IMG/VR virus record: IMGVR_UViG_3300033074_001909
Span: 32,001-96,000 of that record
Length of the DNA: 64,000 nucleotides
Strand: one strand, 5' to 3'
DNA from: a virus
Taxonomy: Duplodnaviria > Caudoviricetes
The position numbers were made by a program, and so were the translations under genes. This document shows, piece after piece, positions 20,303 to 60,263 of the stretch. Below the pieces are notes generated by a model, which worked only from the letters and a program-made list of their open reading frames with translations, ran no database searches and had not been told where the DNA came from. Within the stretch, counting starts at the first letter, position 1, and each line of letters opens with the position of its first letter.

Positions 20303-20400
20303 CGAATTTGCGGTGCGGAGTAGACTGGCTGGCGAAACGGGCTCCTCGACCAGAGGCCCCGTCAGGATCAGGCAGTACCTGATTTGGACGGGGCTTTTTT
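20299..20400 (+). promoter_or_regulatory. promoter followed by leader terminator
   Basis: TTGACG-16-TAGACT; stem GCCCCGTC...GACGGGGC then TTTTTT. Confidence 0.65.
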
Positions 20401-28733: not shown

Positions 28734-29336
28734 ATGGGCAAACGCCGGATCAAACCGAGTGAACGCAAGCCGGTCGAGCCACCGCGCAAGCGGCGACGCG
28801 GCGTGGTGGACGAACCACCGGACCAAACGCCGCCCGATCCCGAGCAGACCAGCCCGTTCGAACACCTGCGGAACCCCAACCAGCGAATATTCCTGCGGGT
28901 GTACTGTCAGTGCTGGAGCATTACGCAGGCGGCCGAGGCGTCGGGCCTGTCGATATGGGCGCATTACTACTGGAAACGCACGGATGCGCTGTACCGGCGC
29001 GCGTTTGTCCTAGCCTGGAAAATCGCTGGGGACCGGTGCGAGGAAGAGGCGTATCGCCGGGCGGTGACGGGTCTTCGCCGCTTGAAGTTTGGGCCGAAAG
29101 GCAAGCCGCTGATTGATCCCGCCACGCGCCAGCCCTACGTGGAGCACGAATTTTCGGATCGGCTGCTCGAGCGGCTGCTGAAAGCCTTCAAACCACATCG
29201 CTATTGCGACCGGCAGGAGACGCAGCACAACGTGTCGGTGGATAGTCCCGCGCAGGGCAGTGGGGGCATGACGGATCTCTTAAAGACCTTCTGTGATACA
29301 CCACCAGAGTCCCCCGAATCTGCCGCTGCACCATGA
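28734..29336 (+). CDS. terS: terminase small subunit
   Basis: QRIFL..SITQAAEASG..YYW; EEEAYRRAVTG; FSDRLLERLLKA..P..Y; directly upstream of TerL. Confidence 0.8.
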   Translation: MGKRRIKPSERKPVEPPRKRRRGVVDEPPDQTPPDPEQTSPFEHLRNPNQRIFLRVYCQCWSITQAAEASGLSIWAHYYWKRTDALYRRAFVLAWKIAGDRCEEEAYRRAVTGLRRLKFGPKGKPLIDPATRQPYVEHEFSDRLLERLLKAFKPHRYCDRQETQHNVSVDSPAQGSGGMTDLLKTFCDTPPESPESAAAP

Positions 29337-31956
29337 GTCGATCCGCGACTGGCTGCACGCGGCGGCCACGATTCCGATTCAGTGGCGACGTCGGAAGTAT
29401 CTGCGCGACTGCCTGCGGGCCTCGTCCGAGTTGCGGGCCAAGTTGATCGAGAAGAACGACAGCCGGTTGACCACCCATATCCAACGGCTGTTCACGCATC
29501 CCTATTTCGCGTTCGAGCCCCGGCCCGATAATCCCGCCGCCGGCGATCAGCAGACCGGGTTTCTGGAGTCGCAGGCCTTCACGACAGTGGCTCTGGGAGG
29601 CACGGGTAGCGGCAAGAGCTACATCGGCTCACAACGGGCCATCAAGTTCCTCTGCGAGGATCAGCGACCGCCAATCAAGGACACGCCCTTCTTCGTGATC
29701 GCCGACAACCTGGAGGAATCCTCCAAGGCTTGCTGGGCGCAGAAACTCCACGATCTGTTGCCGCGGGAGTGGGTCGACTGGGACCGCATTACCTGGCGCA
29801 GCGCGAAGATGAATTTTCCGCGCATCGTGCCGCTGCGGCCCTGGCAGGACGACCCCAAGACGAACTGGGCGATTTACTTCTGCGGCTACACCCAGGACCG
29901 CAAGGCCTTCCAGGCCATCGCGGCCGGCGGCGCGTGGTTCACGGAACAATTCCCGTACGACATCTACGAGGAAGTCGTCGGGCGTATGCGACAATGGATG
30001 TTCAACGGCGCTCTGTGGCTGGAATTCACGCCGCTGGATCCGACCGACAGCGTCAAAGTCCAGGAGCTGTACGAGAAGTGGACGCGGGGCGAGCTCGACG
30101 AGGATCAATGGTCGTTCTACCGCCTCAACACCGAAGAAGCGGCGAAGAAGGGACACGTCAAGCAGGAGTTTGTCGACACGCTCAAGGCGACGATCTCACC
30201 CGAGATGCTCGCTACCCGCTTGCGCGGGGATTTCGGCTCCTACGAGGGTGTGATCTATCAGAGTCTCAACCCGCTAGTGCATTTCGTGCCCGGGACGCAA
30301 TACGACAAGTGTCCGCGCGATATTAACCTGACGTACAAGCGAGGCATCGACTGGGGCGCCGGCCCATCGAATGCGTTTGTCGTCTTGTGGGGCGCCAAGG
30401 ATTCCATGGGCCGCTGGTTCATTTTCGACGAGTATTACACCACGGATCAGCTCATGACCTGGGAAGATCACGTGCGGGAGATTCACAAGAAGGATGGGTG
30501 GAAACTCATTGGCCAGATAGACCGCGGTCTGACGACGTACCGCCTGGAGCCGATCCCAGGCGTGCCGCAGCGGTGGATTTACGAGCGCTCGAATTTTGGC
30601 CAGACCTACGCGCCACCCGAGCAGCCGGACTTATTCCGTGAGTTCGCGAAATACTGCCTGCCCGTGACGCCAGCCCGGAATGCCTTTCACCCCGGCGTGG
30701 ATTGCGTGCGGCGGCATTTGAAATTCGACGACTTCACGCTCGAGCAGCGGACCGAGCCGCAACTGTTCATCGATCGGCGCGCGTGCCCAAATCTGGCAAG
30801 AGAACTGCCAGCGCTGCAGTGGAAAGACCCGCCCAAGGCAGGCGTGAATCCTTCAAGCGCCAAGATGGAACAGAAAAAAATACATGACCACTCCTGCACG
30901 ATTTCTTCGACGCTCGTGTTGACGGAATCGGGATGGAAGCCAATTATCGAGATCCAGCGAGGCGAGATGGTGGCCTCGCTCGACGGCTGGACTCGGGTGG
31001 AATGCGGAGCGGTCAAGACGGGCGTAAATCGCCCATTGGTGCGAATCACGTTGGACAATGGGGCCGAGGTGGTGTGTACTCCCTGCCATCGGTTCCCGAC
31101 GGAGGATGGATCATGGATCGCGGCGGAACACCTGCTGGGCCGACGTTTGGCGAAGTGGTGCGATACACCACCAGGAGTGGGCAGATGGCGGAATCCATCG
31201 AGTACGGCGGAATGGTGTGGCGACGATACCCCAACTCGCGATTCCCGGCTGCTCGCTACTTCGTCAAGCGAGTTGGTAAGCGGCCTGATGCCATTCTTCT
31301 CCATCGCAGGATCTACGAAGATTTTGTGGGACCAATTCCAAAGGGAATGGCCATCCATCACAAAGACGGGTGCATTACCAACAACCACCCATCCAACCTG
31401 GAACTTTGCACGTTCCGGGATCATTCACAAAAGCATGTGTCCGACAATGTCAACATGCGACAAGGCTTACGCGAGTGGCGACAGAAGCAGCCAGGACAAC
31501 TTCGTCAAATCGCGAAAAATGCCAGCGACGCCTACTGGAGTGATCCACGCGTGGTCAGCCTTACTTGCTCGCATTGCGGCATCGCGTTTTCGTCAAAGGA
31601 CGTGCGCACTAACCGAAAGCGATACTGCTCTGGTGCATGCAATCGGCAGGCGTTGCGAACCGAAAAGCGGCTATGCAAACATTGTGGCCAGGAGTTCTTG
31701 GCGGCATCCTTCGAGCCAAACGTCTTTTGTAGCAAGCGGTGCTCTGCGTGTTATGGAGGTATCCTCCTGCGGAACCGCCGACACGTACTGCATCGCGACT
31801 GAGTCGGGTTCGATGGTGTGGGGAGGCGGAGTCGTGGCGTCAAACTGTGATGCATTGCGCTACCTGCTATACTCCGACTGGATGGGCAACACGGGTGGCA
31901 TCGAAGCCTTCCAGGCCCCGCAGCCGCATCGTCCGCAAGTGCGATTAAGGAAATGA
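29293..31956 (+). CDS. terL: terminase large subunit, intein-containing (start uncertain)
   Basis: Walker A GGTGSGKS, FTPL, RLRGDF, GIDWG, FDEYY, DHS/CDALRY. Confidence 0.9.
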   Translation: MIHHQSPPNLPLHHESIRDWLHAAATIPIQWRRRKYLRDCLRASSELRAKLIEKNDSRLTTHIQRLFTHPYFAFEPRPDNPAAGDQQTGFLESQAFTTVALGGTGSGKSYIGSQRAIKFLCEDQRPPIKDTPFFVIADNLEESSKACWAQKLHDLLPREWVDWDRITWRSAKMNFPRIVPLRPWQDDPKTNWAIYFCGYTQDRKAFQAIAAGGAWFTEQFPYDIYEEVVGRMRQWMFNGALWLEFTPLDPTDSVKVQELYEKWTRGELDEDQWSFYRLNTEEAAKKGHVKQEFVDTLKATISPEMLATRLRGDFGSYEGVIYQSLNPLVHFVPGTQYDKCPRDINLTYKRGIDWGAGPSNAFVVLWGAKDSMGRWFIFDEYYTTDQLMTWEDHVREIHKKDGWKLIGQIDRGLTTYRLEPIPGVPQRWIYERSNFGQTYAPPEQPDLFREFAKYCLPVTPARNAFHPGVDCVRRHLKFDDFTLEQRTEPQLFIDRRACPNLARELPALQWKDPPKAGVNPSSAKMEQKKIHDHSCTISSTLVLTESGWKPIIEIQRGEMVASLDGWTRVECGAVKTGVNRPLVRITLDNGAEVVCTPCHRFPTEDGSWIAAEHLLGRRLAKWCDTPPGVGRWRNPSSTAEWCGDDTPTRDSRLLATSSSELVSGLMPFFSIAGSTKILWDQFQREWPSITKTGALPTTTHPTWNFARSGIIHKSMCPTMSTCDKAYASGDRSSQDNFVKSRKMPATPTGVIHAWSALLARIAASRFRQRTCALTESDTALVHAIGRRCEPKSGYANIVARSSWRHPSSQTSFVASGALRVMEVSSCGTADTYCIATESGSMVWGGGVVASNCDALRYLLYSDWMGNTGGIEAFQAPQPHRPQVRLRK
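30895..31845 (+). mobile_element. intein in TerL (317 aa)
   Basis: C1 CTISSTLVLTESGWKPI, block B CTPCHRF, end TYCI..GVVASN|C; removal restores DHSCDALRY. Confidence 0.88.
31185..31802 (+). CDS. HNH homing endonuclease with Zn fingers, nested out of frame inside the intein
   Basis: AGGAG SD; LLHRRIYEDFVGPIPKGMAIHHKDGCITNNHPSNLE; CSHC/CSGAC/CKHC/CSKRC. Confidence 0.85.
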   Translation: MAESIEYGGMVWRRYPNSRFPAARYFVKRVGKRPDAILLHRRIYEDFVGPIPKGMAIHHKDGCITNNHPSNLELCTFRDHSQKHVSDNVNMRQGLREWRQKQPGQLRQIAKNASDAYWSDPRVVSLTCSHCGIAFSSKDVRTNRKRYCSGACNRQALRTEKRLCKHCGQEFLAASFEPNVFCSKRCSACYGGILLRNRRHVLHRD

Positions 31957-32891
31957 CCATGGCACGACTGAATGCCTCCCAGCGTCGGCAGGTCATCCGG
32001 AACGCGACCCGCGAACTGCGCCGCTCGGGCGGACGTCGCAGCGGATCGGGAGAGCCTGGCCCGTTGGGCGGCCTATTCCGCACGCTGGGGGCCCGCTTCG
32101 GGCCGCTGGGCGAGGTCATCGGCATGCTCGGGGATATCCTGTCCGGCGGACGGCGGGTGACCCGGCGCAATATCGAAGACGCGGTGCGGATCCTGACCGA
32201 AGAGGGATTTGAAGTCGCGCCAGCGCCACCGGAGGCGCCCCCGGTAATTGTGCAGCCTCCGCCGGTGGTGCCGCGTGGGGTACGCCCGGCCCCCGCGGTG
32301 CCGCCGGCATCGATTCCGCCGCTGCCGCCACAGGAACCGGCCGATCCGTGGCCCGCCGAACATTCGGTCCGGATTCTGCCGCGCCGTGTGCGAGGCGTCT
32401 ACGACAGTATCCCGGCCGACATCGACACCTTCCAGGGCTGGATCCTCACGCCCCAGAGCTCCAACGTGCATGCGGTCGCGTACCACGAGGGTATCCTCTA
32501 CGTGTGGTATCGGGCCGCTGGCAAGCCGACCGGGTACAAGGACGGGATCTCGTTATGCACCGGGAAGGCCTATAAGATCGGGATCCGGCCCGACGTGCCG
32601 GGCCCGATCTACTCGTATGGTGGCGCAGGCCGTCCGGTGCCACAGTCGGTGTTTGACGCGATTGCCACGTCGCGTTCGCCAGGCAAGCAGGTCTGGGACA
32701 AGTTGCGCGTGTGCGGATCGCAGTGGCAGCATCAGTACGTGTACACGCTGACCGATGTGCCCATGGGTCAGGCGGTGCCCCGCAAGGCGACGCGTCGCGG
32801 GTTGGCGGTGCGCAATGTCCCCAATGTCGGTCTGGGGCCACGTGGATCTCGCCGTAGCACGCTGCCCGCACGTGTGGCGGGGATCCGGTAA
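31953..32891 (+). CDS. KTSC-like domain protein
   Basis: SSNVHAVAY..LYVWY...YSY..VPQSVFDAI..SRSPGKQVWDKLR. Confidence 0.65.
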   Translation: MTMARLNASQRRQVIRNATRELRRSGGRRSGSGEPGPLGGLFRTLGARFGPLGEVIGMLGDILSGGRRVTRRNIEDAVRILTEEGFEVAPAPPEAPPVIVQPPPVVPRGVRPAPAVPPASIPPLPPQEPADPWPAEHSVRILPRRVRGVYDSIPADIDTFQGWILTPQSSNVHAVAYHEGILYVWYRAAGKPTGYKDGISLCTGKAYKIGIRPDVPGPIYSYGGAGRPVPQSVFDAIATSRSPGKQVWDKLRVCGSQWQHQYVYTLTDVPMGQAVPRKATRRGLAVRNVPNVGLGPRGSRRSTLPARVAGIR

Positions 32892-32905
32892 TTGGCTCCG
32901 CATTC

Positions 32906-32940
32906 GTTGAATGCCCGCGCAGTGGCTTCGTTGCTGCGAG
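32906..32940 (-). repeat. inverted solitary copy of the CRISPR repeat (anti-repeat)
   Basis: Reverse complement CTCGCAGCAACGAAGCCACTGCGCGGGCATTCAAC. Confidence 0.8.
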
Positions 32941-32960
32941 TACAGGTCGACCCACGCCTT

Positions 32961-33140
32961 TGGGCAAGAGCCAAGCCTCTGCGCGGGCACTTCGACCGGT
33001 TGGGACGAGTTCTGCGCAGCCCAAATCCGGAACGCTCGCAGAAACAAAGCCCCTGCGCGGGCACTTCGACTTGTCGACAACCTGGATCCGGTCGAGCACC
33101 GGCTCTCGCAGGAACAAAGCCCCTACGCGGGCATCATCGC
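32961..33140 (+). CRISPR. CRISPR mini-array: three 36-nt repeats, two spacers (38 and 34 nt)
   Basis: Central repeat CTCGCAGAAACAAAGCCCCTGCGCGGGCACTTCGAC (33035-33070); repeat 1 (32961-32996) has a degenerate 5' half, repeat 3 (33105-33140) a degenerate 3' end. Confidence 0.8.
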
Positions 33141-33340
33141 TCTAACCTGGGCCGGCCTTCGCTCCGCGGTCGACTGAGTCCCCCGCGAATCGACTTCGGT
33201 AGTTTCGCCGCGCCCGCATCACGCAGCCATTCCGACAGCGATTTACCTTCCTTCGCGGCCGCCGCCAGAAAGGCCGTCCACCAATCCTGCGGCGCCGTGA
33301 TGTTGCGGCGGATCGTATCGTCTCCATGGGGCTCTGTCAT
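33134..33340 (-). CDS. ribbon-helix-helix DNA-binding protein
   Basis: RRNITAPQDWWTAFLAAAAKEGKSLSEWLRDA. Confidence 0.75.
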   Translation of the reverse strand: MTEPHGDDTIRRNITAPQDWWTAFLAAAAKEGKSLSEWLRDAGAAKLPKSIRGGLSRPRSEGRPRLER

Positions 33341-33353
33341 GCCGGTGATCCTA

Positions 33354-33584
33354 TCACGTCGTGACCGTTATCTGCAGGGTGGCTTTCTCGCGAGTCCAGC
33401 CATGCTGCCGCAGCATCCGCGCCTCGAGCAGTTCCACGCGGTCAAGGCACTGCTGGAGAAATCCCTGTGGCAGATCATAGTCGAGCCCCCAGAACCACTT
33501 CACAACCAGCCAGGTTTGGCGGTCGGTGATTGGTTTCGCGAGTTCCCGCTCCAGGCGGGTAGAAATAGCTTGCGTGGTGGTCAT
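33354..33584 (-). CDS. small hypothetical protein
   Basis: GGAG SD, operon spacing. Confidence 0.6.
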   Translation of the reverse strand: MTTTQAISTRLERELAKPITDRQTWLVVKWFWGLDYDLPQGFLQQCLDRVELLEARMLRQHGWTREKATLQITVTT

Positions 33585-33808
33585 GGTTTGGACGCTCCAT
33601 TGATTCGGAGTAGGTGCAGCTCGAATCGGTCCTTCTCTTCCTGCGTCGCTGGCCGAATCTCAACCGTTTCGCCCGCCTGCAAGGCTGCTTGCACATTAGA
33701 CCAGTCCGACCGAATGCCTCCTGCGGTGTACAAGCACGACATGAGCGTTGCGCTGTCGTGGTAAAAATGCTCGCCGATGTAAATCAGTTTCATGGTCTTC
33801 ATGGTCAT
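33581..33808 (-). CDS. small hypothetical protein
   Basis: AAGGAG SD; MTMKTMKLIYIGEHFY. Confidence 0.65.
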   Translation of the reverse strand: MTMKTMKLIYIGEHFYHDSATLMSCLYTAGGIRSDWSNVQAALQAGETVEIRPATQEEKDRFELHLLRINGASKP

Positions 33809-33988
33809 GCTCCTTGTGAAGAAAATATCGACCGTTGGCCGCGAATGGCCGGCGTCAGCATGCGGGCCGCTCCCCTCGCGGGTCGCGGAAACCACCGGCG
33901 ACGGTCGTCGCGCCGGATCGACGCCGCAGCCCACCTGCCGGACCGCATGACCGGGTGGCCGTCAGGATTGCGGGCTGCGGCGGTTTAG

Positions 33989-34297
33989 TCAGGTATGCTG
34001 GCGGCATCCGCGTACCGGAACGCAAACCCCGGCCCAGTGGCATCGACGAGATACCGGATGCCGGAATCTCCACGATAATTCCGAGAGCCCATCGACCGGG
34101 GCACCGGCGTTGAGCCCGGTGACGTGGTGTCCCGTGGGCATACACTCGATCAGCATCCGCTCGAACTCATCCGTCGGAAGGATACGTGCCACGTCGCGTC
34201 GTGGCACATCGGTGCGCCGCGAGCCGAAGCCAATATTCCGGCGCCCGGTGATGATGAGTTCGTCGCCAATACGCTCGATGGTGTCACTGATTTTCAT
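33989..34297 (-). CDS. small hypothetical protein
   Basis: GGAGAG SD; MKISDTIERIG. Confidence 0.55.
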   Translation of the reverse strand: MKISDTIERIGDELIITGRRNIGFGSRRTDVPRRDVARILPTDEFERMLIECMPTGHHVTGLNAGAPVDGLSELSWRFRHPVSRRCHWAGVCVPVRGCRQHT

Positions 34298-34391
34298 GAT
34301 TCTCTCCGTGATCGAATGCCGCCTTGGGACGGCCGCCGGGCTCACCAGAGCCCGGCGGGGCATTAGGCCGCGAAAGCGGCCCCCTCTGCAT

Positions 34392-34568
34392 CTACCCGTC
34401 GTACTTGACGCGCACAACGCAATGCCAGCCGGCCGCACCGTGCCAGGACATGGGCTCCTCGTCCTCCTGGCCGTCGACGTCCGGCGACGTGTCAGCCATG
34501 CCGCACTCGCCGCAAAACGTCAGGCCGCAGCCGTCCGGTGCCTCGTAGACTCGATATCGCGTGGCCAT
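34392..34568 (-). CDS. small hypothetical protein (58 aa, CxxC)
   Basis: AAGGAGACGACCATG start; MATRYRVYEAPDGCGLTFCGECG. Confidence 0.55.
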   Translation of the reverse strand: MATRYRVYEAPDGCGLTFCGECGMADTSPDVDGQEDEEPMSWHGAAGWHCVVRVKYDG

Positions 34569-34589
34569 GGTCGTCTCCTTGTGTCTCTG

Positions 34590-34931
34590 CTACTCAGCCG
34601 CCTGGATGATTTTGGCGACATCCAGATCGCCGTTGCACGCCGCGTAAATCGGATCGCCATCCGTGTATTCTTCGCCTGGATCGTCCAGGCTGTCTACCAT
34701 TCGCTCGGCAGCAGCGGTTACCTGCTCGGGCGTCAGCTTGGCCGCCACAAACGCATTGGCGGTGGCGGCATCCCAAACGCCAATTTCACACCACGGACGC
34801 GCCGTAGCGGCGGTGAAACCGTAATCGATCCAGTTCTCGGCCTCGTCCTTCGGGTGATTGCCAGTAAACATGCCGCCGTGGTTGCTGAGCATTTCCATCA
34901 TGTCTTGAAGATCCCGATCGATGGTCGTCAT
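34590..34931 (-). CDS. hypothetical protein
   Basis: GAGGAG SD; W..GF....A..W...GVW. Confidence 0.7.
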   Translation of the reverse strand: MTTIDRDLQDMMEMLSNHGGMFTGNHPKDEAENWIDYGFTAATARPWCEIGVWDAATANAFVAAKLTPEQVTAAAERMVDSLDDPGEEYTDGDPIYAACNGDLDVAKIIQAAE

Positions 34932-34981
34932 GGTCGTGTCTCCTCGTGAAAGAAAATCTGGTCGCCGAGCCGCCCCATCGG

Positions 34982-35194
34982 CTACACAATGTTCGTCGCC
35001 TCAGGAATCACTCCGTAGCGATTCAGCAGCCCCACACGCCGTCGCGCGGCTGCTTCTGCCTGCTCTTGCGATGGATAGCCGCCGTTGCACCACGTGGCGT
35101 CGCCGATGTCGATGCGGTAGCCAAAACATCCAGCACTGTAGCCTTCCGGATTCTCGATGATCGTGATGTTGGCTTGCGGGCGTCGTTCGGTCAT
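34982..35194 (-). CDS. small hypothetical protein
   Basis: GAGGA SD. Confidence 0.6.
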   Translation of the reverse strand: MTERRPQANITIIENPEGYSAGCFGYRIDIGDATWCNGGYPSQEQAEAAARRRVGLLNRYGVIPEATNIV

Positions 35195-35259
35195 GGTCGT
35201 GTCCTCGTCTTCGTGTTGGATAAAACCGGGGCGGCCCGAAGGCCGCCCCTCCGTGGGCG

Positions 35260-35730
35260 TCAGAGCGACTCTACCGCAGCGAAACGGCTGCGGTAGTCCG
35301 CCGGGGTCATTCGCTCGGCTGTTACTGCCCCGGCTGCGTCCAGCCGGAGCAGCGTGTACAGCCAGTCCCTCCGGCCGCGATAGCCGGAGGTGACGATGAT
35401 GATGCCCGTCGAGGGCACCCGAAAGACAGCGGCGGCGAAATCGTTGCCGCCGCTCGACGAGGTGGCTACGACCCCGGTCGGTTCGACCGGTGGCAGTTCT
35501 TTCGTGGCAACTGTCTTCGCCTGCTCGGGGCAGGCGAAGCCGTGGAACGTTCCCGCGTCATCTGCGTGCCACAGCACGCAGATGCCTGGGGACAGGCCAA
35601 TCTTACGGTCGCCGATCGTGGCGACCTGGCCGTCGGCGTCGACTGCCAGCGACACACGCCGGCAGTTCGCGCCGGCTTGGCCGGACACGCTTTGCCCCGC
35701 CTTAATTCCGAGCAACATATTCGTGGACAT
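35260..35730 (-). CDS. hypothetical protein, first gene of the minus-strand operon
   Basis: GGAG SD; downstream of promoter. Confidence 0.65.
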   Translation of the reverse strand: MSTNMLLGIKAGQSVSGQAGANCRRVSLAVDADGQVATIGDRKIGLSPGICVLWHADDAGTFHGFACPEQAKTVATKELPPVEPTGVVATSSSGGNDFAAAVFRVPSTGIIIVTSGYRGRRDWLYTLLRLDAAGAVTAERMTPADYRSRFAAVESL

Positions 35731-56861: not shown

Positions 56862-57611
56862 ATGACCGCCCCGCAATTATTTGCCAGCTACTGGCCCGAG
56901 GGACCGCATCGCTGCTACTACTGCGGCGGGCGATGCGACGAGACGCATCGAGCTGCTGATCTGGTCCAGTCGTCGTTTACCGCACGTGATACCGTGGCTG
57001 GCGGTGAGTACGTGTGCCCTGGCTGCATCGCTGCGATGGACGAGAGGGCCACGATTACGCTGGCCGACGGCGAAGTGCGCGAAGGCCAGCGGGTCCGCTG
57101 CTACTCCTGGGTCATCACTGCCGAAGCGGCGATCGCTGCCACCAAAGCTCATCGCGCGTGGCTGACAGGAGCGTGCCTGTCGCCTCCAGAACCGCCCTAC
57201 GTCATCTCGATCAGCGACAGCGGGCAACGGCACCTGCTGTATCGTGCCGTCGTATGCCATTCTCGCGAGATCATTACCGCCACTCTGGAGGGCGAGCGGG
57301 TAACATTCACACCCTATGAGCTTGACGAGCGGTTGACGCTGTGTCGCAAACTGATCGCGGCAACCGGCAAGCCGGCTCTGTCCGAAGCACCGACTGCACG
57401 ATTCGGCATGTCGGTAGTCTCGCATCACGACGACGAATCACTGATCTCCACGTGGCTGGAATGTCGCGAGCAACCGCTGTCTCGCCTGGCGGCGTGGCTC
57501 TCGCCTCCCAAGGAGGAATGCTTACTTGAGTTCCCAGCACCAGCAGCTCCCGCCCCCACTGCCTGTGCTCGACACCGAGCAGTTCAGGCAACGTTTAGCT
57601 GGCTTGATTGA
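56862..57611 (+). CDS. csf1: type IV CRISPR Csf1 (Cas8-like)
   Basis: CYYCG, VCPGC Zn finger; PPEPPYVISISDSGQRHLLYRAVV. Confidence 0.8.
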   Translation: MTAPQLFASYWPEGPHRCYYCGGRCDETHRAADLVQSSFTARDTVAGGEYVCPGCIAAMDERATITLADGEVREGQRVRCYSWVITAEAAIAATKAHRAWLTGACLSPPEPPYVISISDSGQRHLLYRAVVCHSREIITATLEGERVTFTPYELDERLTLCRKLIAATGKPALSEAPTARFGMSVVSHHDDESLISTWLECREQPLSRLAAWLSPPKEECLLEFPAPAAPAPTACARHRAVQATFSWLD

Positions 57612-57999
57612 CCAGCGATCCGAAGTGGACGCCGAAGATTTCGCCAGCGTGGCGGCGTGCGCTATCCATTTTGTCTCGTCGCTGCCGATTGTGTTCGGCG
57701 AGCAGCTCGAGCGCACCACACTGTGGGATAAGATCGGCGCCGCCCTGGATACCGCTTACGCCAAGACCGCCGCCGATGATTGCGACTTCTTTATCAGTCG
57801 CGTGCTGGAGTCGATCCTGGCTTCTCCGGCGGCCGTCGCTCGCTGTGAGGCCATCGGCCAGGTGATAACGTGGCTCTCCGCTGCGCCGACTGAGATGCGG
57901 CACGCGTGGCTGCAGTACATCGCCACGCACCGCTATGCCGTGCTCGTACGCGCTCGCATGGCCTGGGAGCAGCAGAAGGAGGCTCGCGCCAATGCCTGA
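57526..57999 (+). CDS. type IV-B small subunit (Cas11-like), alpha-helical
   Basis: position between csf1 and csf2; helical composition. Confidence 0.65.
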   Translation: MSSQHQQLPPPLPVLDTEQFRQRLAGLIDQRSEVDAEDFASVAACAIHFVSSLPIVFGEQLERTTLWDKIGAALDTAYAKTAADDCDFFISRVLESILASPAAVARCEAIGQVITWLSAAPTEMRHAWLQYIATHRYAVLVRARMAWEQQKEARANA

Positions 58000-58876
58000 G
58001 ACCTATACGATCCTCTGCGTGAGTGAAGCCGCCTCGCCAATCACGCACATGAGCGGCAGCGCCGGCAATGAGGCGATTATCGCTCGTGCGCCCGTGATGA
58101 CGGATCGCGGGAAACTGTGGATACCATACCTCTCAGGTAATGCCCTGCGCCACCGTTGCGTGCGAGATCCAGGCGTGGATTTCCTTTTGGATCTTTACGA
58201 ACTGCGAGGCAAACTTACACTGCCGCAGCTCAATTTCCTGCGGCACGGCGGAAATCTCACGGAGTCCACCGCACACGAGAACACGGCCCGCATCGCCGAG
58301 ATGAAACGCACTTGGCCGCTACTGCGATTGCTGGGTGGCTCGTTGCCAAACCAGATCCTGGCCGGCAGCCTGCAAGTCTGGCGTGGTGAACTGGTGTGCG
58401 AGGAAAACCGCCAATACCTGGCCACGCTCGGAGACTGGCTGCCCACGCGGCGACTCAAGGCTGCCGAGGAGTTCATCGGGAACTACCAGTACACGCGCGG
58501 CGATGCCGCGAAGTCCGGCGAGGCTCAGGCGGAGGAGGATCGCGAGAGCAATCTGATGATCTTCGCTGGCCAGCAGGTCAATCGTGGCTCGCTGTTTGTG
58601 CATGGCTTCGTGGCGCCTCACGCGTCGCGCGTCGAACTGGGCGCGCTGCTGCTGTCGCTCCGACTCTGGCAGTCCCGCGGCGGGACGATCGGCGGACAAG
58701 CGGCGCGCGGCCACGGCCGGCTGGCGATGTCCCTGGTCGGTGCGATCGACCAGTCGTGTGTGGACGAGTACGTCGAGTACGCGATCAGCGTGCGAGATGC
58801 GGCGATCGCGTGGCTTGAGGACTGCTTTGCGAAGCGAGCCGACAAGCCAGCGAAGACAAAGAAGGTGAAGGCATGA
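57992..58876 (+). CDS. csf2: type IV Csf2 (Cas7-family RAMP)
   Basis: SPITH, IPYLSGNALRH, L.HGG.L, PLLRLLGG, G-loop IGGQAARGHG. Confidence 0.88.
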   Translation: MPETYTILCVSEAASPITHMSGSAGNEAIIARAPVMTDRGKLWIPYLSGNALRHRCVRDPGVDFLLDLYELRGKLTLPQLNFLRHGGNLTESTAHENTARIAEMKRTWPLLRLLGGSLPNQILAGSLQVWRGELVCEENRQYLATLGDWLPTRRLKAAEEFIGNYQYTRGDAAKSGEAQAEEDRESNLMIFAGQQVNRGSLFVHGFVAPHASRVELGALLLSLRLWQSRGGTIGGQAARGHGRLAMSLVGAIDQSCVDEYVEYAISVRDAAIAWLEDCFAKRADKPAKTKKVKA

Positions 58877-59538
58877 GCCTGCTCGTGATCGCGCACCTAT
58901 CGTCGCCGCTGGCCGGTGATGCGCCGATGCTGGACGGACTGCTCGAGTTCGAGATGTCGCAGAGACTCGGTGCGGCGTATAAGGTCCGCCGCGATCAGCC
59001 TGCACCGCCCGCCGGAGCGATCCATATTCCGATGCTGCGGCGCGGTATCGGCGGTTGGAGTGTTCCGCTCTGCTCGTCACCGATCTACACCGCCGAGAGT
59101 GATCGGCATGAGTACATCGGCAAGCGGCTGGCGGTCGAGCACGCCAGTGATTTACGCGAGGATGCACGGCTGGTCGTGGCGATGGGCAACGCGACCTACA
59201 AGTCATATCGCCTACCGCTGCGAGTGAGGAATGTGTCACGCGTGGCGTGGTTCTGCGAGGGGCATCGATCGCCGATTTTGAAGCTGCTCAAATCGGTACA
59301 CGCGATCGGCCGGAAGCGGTCAGATGGATACGGTCGCGTGGCGCGATGGACTGGCGAGAACGTGGATGGCAATCATCACTGGTACGGCGAGAGCGAGCAC
59401 GGCCCGGTGCTCATGCGACCGCTGCCGTTTGGCGACTGGCTGCCGCGCAGCCTGCTCGGCGCGAAGCGAGATTTCGGTGCGGTCGTCGCGCCGTACTGGC
59501 ATCCTGATCGCTATGCGGAGATTGTGGTGCCATGCTGA
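58873..59538 (+). CDS. csf3: type IV Csf3 (Cas5-family RAMP)
   Basis: LSSPL..LDGLL, YKSYRLPL, IGRKRSDGYGRV, MRPLP, PYWH. Confidence 0.85.
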   Translation: MSLLVIAHLSSPLAGDAPMLDGLLEFEMSQRLGAAYKVRRDQPAPPAGAIHIPMLRRGIGGWSVPLCSSPIYTAESDRHEYIGKRLAVEHASDLREDARLVVAMGNATYKSYRLPLRVRNVSRVAWFCEGHRSPILKLLKSVHAIGRKRSDGYGRVARWTGENVDGNHHWYGESEHGPVLMRPLPFGDWLPRSLLGAKRDFGAVVAPYWHPDRYAEIVVPC

Positions 59539-60263
59539 TTCGCACTGCTCGCCACACGGCCGCAGACCTGGCATTGTGGGAGTCGCTCGAGGACGCCGAC
59601 ATTCTGAGGCAGGACGTGGCCGCCTATCGCGCACGGTACGCTGAGGCGCTGCACGCGATCGCCGCGTTTACATCCGCAGGCGAGTGCTACGCCGGCATCA
59701 GTTGGGGGAAGGACTCTACCGTGCTGGCTCATCTGATCCAGTGCGTCGCGCCTGACACGCCACTAGCCTGGACGCGAGTAGAACCGATCGCCAATCCAGA
59801 CTGTGTGCTCGTGCGAGATGCGTTCCTGCGATTGCATCCGCACGCGAACTATCACGAGATCACGGAGTGGTGTGAGTGGCGCGATGGAGAGTGGCACGCC
59901 ACTGGCACGCTCGAAAGCGGCATCGCCAAGTGCCGAGAACGATGGGGAGAGCGGACGATACTCGGTATTCGAGCCGAGGAGAGCACCCAGCGTGGGTTCC
60001 GCATTTGGCGCCACGGACTATCGACGGATCGGTCGTGTGATCCACTGGGACGCTGGCGCATCGAGGACGTGATGACCTGCCTGGCAATCGAGGGACTGCC
60101 GGTGCATCCGGCTTACGCCATGCTGGGAGGCGGGCGCTGGCCGCGAGAGCAACTGCGGGTCTCGTCGCTCGGCGGTCGTCGCGGCGATGGCCTCGGGCGA
60201 GCAGAGTGGGAGCGCGAGTATTACGGCGATGTGGTGCGACGGCTGGCCATGACGGACACCTGA
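59532..60263 (+). CDS. CysH/PAPS-reductase-family protein associated with type IV-B
   Basis: PP-loop SWGKDS, LGIRAEES, PLGRW..DV. Confidence 0.85.
   Translation: MLIRTARHTAADLALWESLEDADILRQDVAAYRARYAEALHAIAAFTSAGECYAGISWGKDSTVLAHLIQCVAPDTPLAWTRVEPIANPDCVLVRDAFLRLHPHANYHEITEWCEWRDGEWHATGTLESGIAKCRERWGERTILGIRAEESTQRGFRIWRHGLSTDRSCDPLGRWRIEDVMTCLAIEGLPVHPAYAMLGGGRWPREQLRVSSLGGRRGDGLGRAEWEREYYGDVVRRLAMTDT

Follow-up and report, generated by a model that had tools for sequence, protein, structure and literature searches.

A solo Cas12m-type repeat copy facing a mini-array in a phage genome: a candidate one-guide unit

Cas12m, the effector of type V-M CRISPR systems, binds DNA without cutting it. 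The CRISPR RNA (crRNA) of MsCas12m consists of the repeat followed by a 20-nt spacer (supplement of PMC11013384). RNA-seq excluded a trans-activating CRISPR RNA (tracrRNA) from Cas12m complexes, and Cas12m cuts the crRNA precursor (pre-crRNA) itself (PMC11013384). Scaffold positions -36 to -30 are disordered in the Cas12m2 structure, and a 17-bp heteroduplex is optimal (PMC10442227). Here, a single repeat copy of this family at 32906-32940, termed the solo copy, was analyzed in the Caudoviricetes phage genome IMGVR_UViG_3300033074_001909 (IMG/VR). The window is the whole 64,000-nt stretch under analysis, which corresponds to bases 32001-96000 of the 106,332-bp virus record, and coordinates refer to the window unless marked as genome positions. 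The solo copy is an intact crRNA handle in the plus-strand orientation, its cognate effector is encoded by the same phage, and it follows the final gene of the packaging operon. It faces a mini-array of three repeats (R1 to R3) on the other strand and may supply Cas12m with a single guide.

The locus resembles the characterized V-M systems (MmCas12m2, MsCas12m and GoCas12m; PMC10442227, PMC11013384) in its 36-nt repeat, which is homologous to that of MsCas12m, in a two-helix pseudoknot beside the guide, and in an effector gene followed by its array on the same strand. Shared features also include the dispensable 5' seven nucleotides of the handle, a guide of about 20 nt after the handle and no need for a tracrRNA. 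It differs in its carrier, a lytic-type phage genome rather than a plasmid or chromosome, and in the solo unit, a single repeat without a downstream repeat that lies in a 3' untranslated region (UTR) 39 kb from the effector and opposes a mini-array on the other strand. A preprint (bioRxiv 10.64898/2026.09.14.751636, September 2026) claims the first report of a phage Cas12m, and in the literature searched phage Cas12m occurs only as a gene with one array. The myxophage of the preprint, MV-1, and the present phage both carry Cas12m with an adjoining array and no adaptation genes. The preprint passages considered describe only an effector and one array, whereas the present genome adds a type IV-B operon, two packed handle-only clusters and the convergent pair.

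Lone repeat copies are also found among RNA anti-CRISPRs (Racrs), which mimic a host repeat, lack linkage to cas genes, usually have their own promoter and have no other repeat within 100 bp (PMC10651486). The solo copy is likewise a single, intergenic, phage-borne CRISPR repeat, but here the cognate effector is in the same phage, another repeat is 31 nt away, and neither a promoter nor a host array was found in the scans described below. Solitary repeat units (Faure 2019, as cited in PMC10651486), mini-arrays and crlRNAs (Shmakov 2023, bioRxiv 10.1101/2023.03.03.530964; bioRxiv 10.1101/2024.12.27.630466) share with the solo copy a lone repeat-like unit joined to a spacer-like stretch and a cognate effector that binds without cutting. 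The crlRNA/CreR units are located at cas loci, and their match is to a nearby promoter next to a protospacer-adjacent motif (PAM), whereas no partial self-target was found for the solo copy in its own genome and the unit lies where a structural operon ends, distant from cas12m.

Identity and intactness of the solo repeat

A profile built from the main-array repeats only was used to search the whole 106-kb genome. It matched the solo copy (32906..32940, sense on the plus strand) over its full length, model positions 1-36, with an nhmmer E-value of 6.7e-6. The match covers 35 nt of the 36-nt unit, which bears out the first-pass annotation of a near-full, opposite-strand repeat at 32906-32940. 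A 15-nt repeat core with two or fewer mismatches occurs at 27 genome sites, and a reversed-pattern control gave 0. The solo copy forms three inverted pairs with the mini-array, with a complementarity of 81% over 26 nt to R1, 90% over 29 nt to R2 and 81% over 37 nt to R3.

The mini-array lies on the minus strand and begins with R3 (33105..33133), which consists of exactly handle positions 8-36 by nhmmer. Spacer 1 (33071..33104, 34 nt), the full-length repeat R2 (33035..33070; nhmmer E = 9.5e-12, positions 1-36) and spacer 2 (32997..33034, 38 nt) follow. The terminal repeat remnant R1 (32972..32996) matches nhmmer positions 1-25 and has lost the 3' hairpin arm. The solo copy is 31 nt from this remnant and 94 nt from the full repeat. 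A gap of 20 nt between the copy and the mini-array, as annotated earlier, holds only if R1 is taken at its nominal length of 36 nt (32961-32996), which leaves 32941-32960; measured to the recognizable repeat, the gap is 31 unique nt. This unique flank (32941..32971, plus strand) is the candidate guide. The 20-31 unique nt behind the solo handle leave room for a guide of at least 17-20 nt.

All 29 handle positions (8-36) are present in the solo copy, and its 1-nt deletion falls within the dispensable 5' seven. The 8 pairs of the conserved pseudoknot described below are all retained. Four substitutions and the one deletion separate the copy from the main-array repeat, and each lies in a column that varies across the repeat family. 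None affects the 18 invariant or nearly invariant columns, an outcome estimated here at about 3% if the changes were placed at random. Three of the changes mismatch all three adjoining repeats, and the handle is no closer to its neighbors (26/29 identical) than to distant copies tens of kb away (27/29), so the copy appears to be conserved as a handle and not tuned as its neighbors' partner. The conservation pattern is assigned to a protein-bound handle, and corresponds neither to an antisense partner nor to R1-type decay. A distinct "solitary" repeat subtype was considered for the solo copy and dropped because the difference is only 1 nt (27/29 versus 26/29).

The effector was identified beside the main array. 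A gene for a 672-aa Cas12u1/Cas12m-like protein lies directly upstream of this array of 13 repeats, on the same strand, and the array has the same repeat as the solo copy. The protein matched Cas12u1 in PADLOC (1e-75) and Cas12m in the PDB (23vw, 1.6e-40; also the Cas12m2 entries 8hhl and 8hio). It is 26% identical to MsCas12m over most of its length and has the D-E-D RuvC pattern. The array repeat of pMESIL02, the MsCas12m plasmid of Meiothermus silvanus, aligns with the phage repeat family. In all, the repeat forms six genome loci: the main array, which spans the record ends, two handle-only clusters, a two-copy unit, the mini-array and the solo copy.

A type IV-B operon is also present on the plus strand (56862..60263; csf1, cas11, csf2, csf3 and a cysH-like gene), 24 kb from the solo repeat. 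PADLOC scores were 2e-60 for typeIV_Cas8, 5e-29 for Cas11, 4e-76 for Cas7 and 2e-31 for Cas5, and the cysH-like gene has a weak PAPS_reduct match. The IV-B system of this phage has no Cas6 and no array of its own, and the genome-wide repeat catalogue holds no repeat copy near the operon. The repeats are assigned to the phage's own Cas12m (V-M) system and not to the IV-B operon. The IV-B operon named in the first-pass annotation is real, but the repeats belong to Cas12m and the premise of that annotation is wrong.

Orientation of the repeat cassettes

The fold of the repeat was tested in an alignment of 34 repeat copies by pairing columns 9-11 with 20-22 and columns 14-18 with 30-34. This two-helix pseudoknot is paired in 99.6% of the cells, and slid controls were all below 52%. 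Three pairs are changed on both sides, and G·U pairs exist only in the sense reading. The R3 pair 16-32 is one such case, a U·G possible only when the minus strand is read. A covarying hairpin is also present in the repeat of the phage contig L012. The Cas12m gene is followed by its array on the same strand in the present phage, in L012 and in the MsCas12m plasmid. Truncated repeat copies retain exactly positions 8-36, which fits the segment of the Cas12m2 scaffold that is ordered, -29 to -1 (PMC10442227). Gene order, the published crRNA order, the G·U and pseudoknot pairs and the truncation pattern thus assign the sense strand as handle first and guide after.

This orientation places the sense strand of the mini-array on the minus strand and that of the "inverted" copy on the plus strand. 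The solo copy is therefore a solitary sense unit on a plus-strand transcript and an anti-repeat on a minus-strand transcript. The first-pass annotation had offered an anti-repeat on a plus-strand transcript or a solitary repeat unit on a minus-strand transcript. Both broad classes were well chosen, but the handle-first orientation exchanges the strands and neither pairing of class and strand stands; on the minus strand the copy is antisense and mimics nothing.

Most of the cassettes follow the direction of the genes ahead of them. Five of the six repeat loci, including the solo copy and the mini-array, share the direction of the gene immediately upstream. R3 starts directly past the TGA stop codon (33134-33136) of an Arc-like gene, a position consistent with cassettes carried on 3' UTRs. 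The locus is read as two converging cassettes, the solo copy and the mini-array, each at the tail of its own operon, and on this reading its repeat/anti-repeat appearance arises only because the two face each other.

A candidate one-guide unit and its rivals

A Cas12m handle-plus-guide unit on a plus-strand 3' UTR is the favored reading of the solo copy, with a probability of roughly 0.45. The gene upstream, gp312 (31953..32891, plus strand, 312 aa), is the final gene of the packaging operon; it is in the open reading frame (ORF) list and its codon-position GC is typical of coding sequence. Its TAA stop is at 32889-32891, the solo copy begins 14-15 nt past it, and no plus-strand gene follows the copy. 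From this position, the solo handle is probably transcribed as the 3' UTR of the packaging operon. After binding to the pseudoknot, Cas12m would cut the RNA immediately upstream, and the handle with the next 17-20 nt or so (32941 onward) would remain on the protein as a single crRNA-like guide. The mini-array would be a separate, opposite-strand cassette fused to the 3' end of the Arc-like gene. A 189-nt RNA-library contig (32765-32953) from one sludge metatranscriptome sample, sequenced in two runs, extends from the 3' end of gp312 through the handle to 13 nt past it. The contig carries no strand information and may reflect DNA carry-over, and it is a weak hint in favor of the one-guide unit. 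The library depth is 3-4.5, and the lack of contigs over 32958-33145 carries no weight.

Lone copies of the repeat outside this genome were sought by pattern scans. A strict repeat pattern found no copies in IMG/VR. A looser pattern found six metagenome contigs, three of which have clear lone copies, all in sample Ga0307375: L013:1365-1400(-), L014:3328-3363(-), L014:4051-4086(+), L015:1641-1676(-) and L015:3286-3321(+). Four of the five (the L013 copy, both L014 copies and the plus-strand L015 copy) are in the sense orientation, with a Shine-Dalgarno sequence and ATG 0-60 nt further downstream, and the two L014 copies are in the leaders of divergent genes. None of the copies on these three contigs has an opposite-strand repeat alongside, which suggests that lone handle copies need no such partner elsewhere. 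A gene beside the Ga0307375 copies matches glycoside hydrolase 19 (lysin-like).

Several results weigh against the one-guide unit. No target for the 20-31-nt flank was found in the phage's own genome (BLAST-short and 17-mers with three or fewer mismatches), IMG/VR (exact 20-21-mers), the INPHARED phages or the fetched loci, which are incomplete collections. A scan of 32400-34000 detected no plus-strand promoter or terminator, so expression of the solo unit would depend on read-through; the promoter scan looks for sigma-70-like sites, which may not be the host's promoter type. Pairing with antisense repeats on read-through transcripts is predicted to compete with folding of the pseudoknot. The relatives available for comparison are eight distant ones, and all lack the whole insert.

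The same searches covered the rest of the locus. Neither mini-array spacer had a target in the own genome, IMG/VR, INPHARED or the fetched loci. A self-match scan of all guides (17 nt, three or fewer mismatches) gave 32 matches compared with 10-20 for shuffled guides; none was convincing, and the flank had 0. The scan of 32400-34000 gave one promoter-like site on the minus strand, where the Arc-like gene starts, and a sole terminator-like site at 33829-33841 on the minus strand, with none in 32892-33145.

The eight gp312 relatives (L021-L028) were collected by a profile scan and are 34-51% identical to gp312. The entire block that separates gp312 from the portal gene is missing in all of them. 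No repeat copy lies past the gp312 homologue, and in some the next gene follows within 60-150 nt. Since all eight lack the insert, the solo-copy locus is classed as a lineage-specific addition. Closer gp312 homologues, P0002-P0004 at 65-75% identity with P0002 at 75%, were also found, and single-protein scans with gp312 and with a 156-aa minus-strand ORF found no further loci.

It is doubtful, although compatible with the one-guide reading, that the solo copy and R1 serve as a structural palindrome, a hairpin that would end, stabilize or insulate the converging transcripts with the repeat as raw material. A predicted hairpin of about 26-30 bp is located precisely between the convergent stops (32891 and 33134), where the plus-strand packaging operon meets a minus-strand module. 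The local folds have energies of -54.7 and -52.0 kcal/mol on the two strands (z = -3.8 and -3.4), and 0 and 1 of 200 shuffles were as stable. The 25 positions left in R1 are just those paired with the solo copy, and the end of the RNA-library contig within the hairpin loop is a weak hint in the same direction. Terminal CRISPR repeats usually decay by loss of their 3' part, however, and this explains R1 without a palindrome. Neither side of the hairpin has a U-tract, and the terminator scan is empty here. A hairpin would not require positions 26-36 or the full pseudoknot, yet the solo copy has both, and no such palindrome occurs at the genome's other repeat loci.

A functionless relic is unlikely. 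The copy would then be left over from a recombination or inversion that inserted the minus-strand module and its cassette between gp312 and the portal gene. The absence of this block from the eight distant relatives agrees with such an event, as do the repeat copies at several module boundaries, where repeat-mediated recombination is plausible, and a flank for which the target searches found nothing. A relic fits less well with a copy in which all invariant columns and pairs are intact despite at least 2/29 handle differences and an indel relative to every other copy, and the pattern is unlike the decay of R1. The similarity of the two arms ends at the repeat itself and gives no hint that an inverted duplication took place recently.

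Two readings that make use of antisense pairing are improbable. The first is a convergent sense/antisense switch. Late read-through from the packaging genes would produce the Cas12m guide and mask the two early minus-strand guides, and the reverse would occur early, with masking by long repeat/anti-repeat duplexes or marking for RNase III. If such a switch were real, the phage would time which guides Cas12m carries, and Cas12m cleavage at embedded handles could even set the 3' ends of phage mRNAs.

The second, for which the odds are equally poor, is an anti-repeat. The antisense of the solo copy, on minus-strand transcripts or in trans, would pair with the array repeats, and RNase III cutting or handle masking would release or silence the two guides or feed a Cas6-less IV-B complex. 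An opposite-strand, imperfectly complementary repeat copy beside an array is also what the tracrRNA anti-repeats of type II and several type V systems look like. The complementarity is 81-90% over 26-37 nt, but any copy of one repeat placed on the opposite strand is complementary by default. Folding of the locus, a check suggested with the first-pass annotation, did predict pairing of the copy with the array repeats. The whole-locus folds have energies of -110 and -121 kcal/mol (z = -3.5 and -3.2) and close the entire mini-array in one stem with the solo copy, and repeat/anti-repeat stems dominate if a transcript spans the locus. Such pairing would destroy the pseudoknot that Cas12m requires, and the three loop mismatches and the bulge are not compensated toward the neighboring repeats. 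Unlike the systems with tracrRNA anti-repeats, the Cas12m family has no tracrRNA, no tracr-like scaffold follows the copy, and related V-M arrays have no equivalent: an opposite-strand copy is absent beside the arrays of MsCas12m and the L012 record and from the other four loci of this genome.

The first-pass annotation had noted that Cas6-independent processing through a tracrRNA-like anti-repeat would suit a Cas6-less IV-B system. Characterized Cas12m works without a tracrRNA and processes its own pre-crRNA (PMC11013384; PMC10442227), so the need for rescue by RNase III falls away and the proposal is not upheld. In PLSDB, the 9 plasmids with Cas12m homologues and the 19 with csf2 homologues form separate sets, which argues against a general V-M/IV-B partnership. 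The solo copy thus lends no support to a tracrRNA-like route in type IV-B, and this correction leaves the IV-B operon without an assigned guide source.

The least probable reading, a Racr-like decoy that would soak up the Cas12m of a host or rival phage or buffer the phage's own Cas12m without guiding it, draws on the activity of solitary phage repeat units as Racrs (PMC10651486), on the resemblance of the minus-strand small ORFs and their Arc-like regulator to acr-aca operons and on the missing flank target, but the repeat matches the phage's own effector and array, the stop of gp312 is only 14-15 nt upstream of a copy with no promoter of its own in the scan, the repeat within 100 bp means that the copy is not solitary by SRUFinder rules (PMC10651486), and the copy is antisense when read on the minus strand, which is that of the candidate acr-like operon. 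One genome from each of 185,579 species was scanned with an exact pattern, which found no array with the solo-type handle and two isolated single matches only. On these grounds, the earlier comparison with RNA anti-CRISPRs is unlikely to hold.

Cas12m binds DNA without cutting it and could act in a phage as a programmable repressor rather than a weapon. The genome shows that a Cas12m phage can spread handle-plus-guide units, some as single copies behind or ahead of genes. Whether the solo copy acts as a guide, a transcript-end device or an antisense partner bears on how a phage supplies guides to the CRISPR effector that it encodes and on whether the effector is applied to the phage's own transcripts.

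Gene neighborhood and the other repeat loci

The packaging operon includes TerS (28734-29336, plus strand, phrog_4044) and TerL (29293-31956, plus strand, Terminase_6N), both ahead of gp312. The gp312 protein has 49 homologues, many with a KTSC domain (PF13619). A small perfect hairpin of 6 bp with a 3-nt loop (32900..32914, plus strand) was found in the sequence and recurs when 32895-32965 is folded locally; this hairpin and the dispensable 5' end of the solo repeat overlap. Two ORFs in this region, 32892-33764 and 32911-33177, were rejected as genes because they cross the repeats and have atypical codon statistics.

On the opposite strand, the Arc-like ribbon-helix-helix gene (33134..33340, minus strand, 68 aa; phrog_6506 Arc-like repressor, E = 1e-3) closes a minus-strand module of small ORFs at about 33134-35730. 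The module sits between the packaging genes and a portal fusion gene, and its small ORFs have no family matches. Its layout, with a terminal Arc-like gene, recalls acr-aca operons.

The two handle-only clusters are at genome 15385-15713 (7 copies) and genome 17645-17839 (4 copies). Their copies cover about positions 8-36, are in the sense orientation on the plus strand and lie between plus-strand genes. Successive handles are 10-30 nt apart, and in two copies the stem is compensated (CGCGG/CCGCG). In the first cluster, 16 nt separate the end of the last copy from a likely start codon with a GAGG ribosome-binding site. The two-copy unit (genome 102180-102320, minus strand) consists of a handle-only copy, a 36-nt spacer and a full repeat, and it is antisense to both flanking genes. 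A promoter-like TTGACG-15 nt-TATGAA is located about 10 nt upstream of its first handle, and its final repeat ends exactly 20 nt before the stop of a convergent 598-aa gene.

Two spacers of the main array have partial matches within the genome. The spacer at genome 255-289 matches its own genome at window 20338-20371 and at genome 13278-13295, at about 31/35 positions. The mismatches fall on the PAM-proximal side, and the site lacks a T- or C-rich flank. A GC-rich hairpin with at least two genome copies forms the matched element, and the spacer looks like a guide against related phages that spares its carrier. The spacer at genome 39-74 has about 15 of its first 19 nt in common with mini-array spacer 2, and the two may be directed against variants of the same site.

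Directly after the main array come six large ORFs (522-876 aa; genome 776-14923); they have no Pfam or PADLOC match, and no paralogy was found among them. The gene before cas12m (genome 102591-103754) encodes a DUF1559/SBP_bac_10 protein with an N-terminal prepilin-type methylation motif. This family is presumably typical of Planctomycetota, which would be a hint at the phage host.

The record is labeled linear and 75% complete. Its two ends (genome 1-80 and 106254-106332) carry the same repeat-spacer unit of about 78 nt, with differences in the last bases, and the genome is probably complete, circular or terminally redundant, and cut inside the main array. DNA near-identical to window 32300-33700 was present in runs of 12 studies of wastewater, sludge and aquatic metagenomes from 2019-2025, and the phage is therefore widespread.

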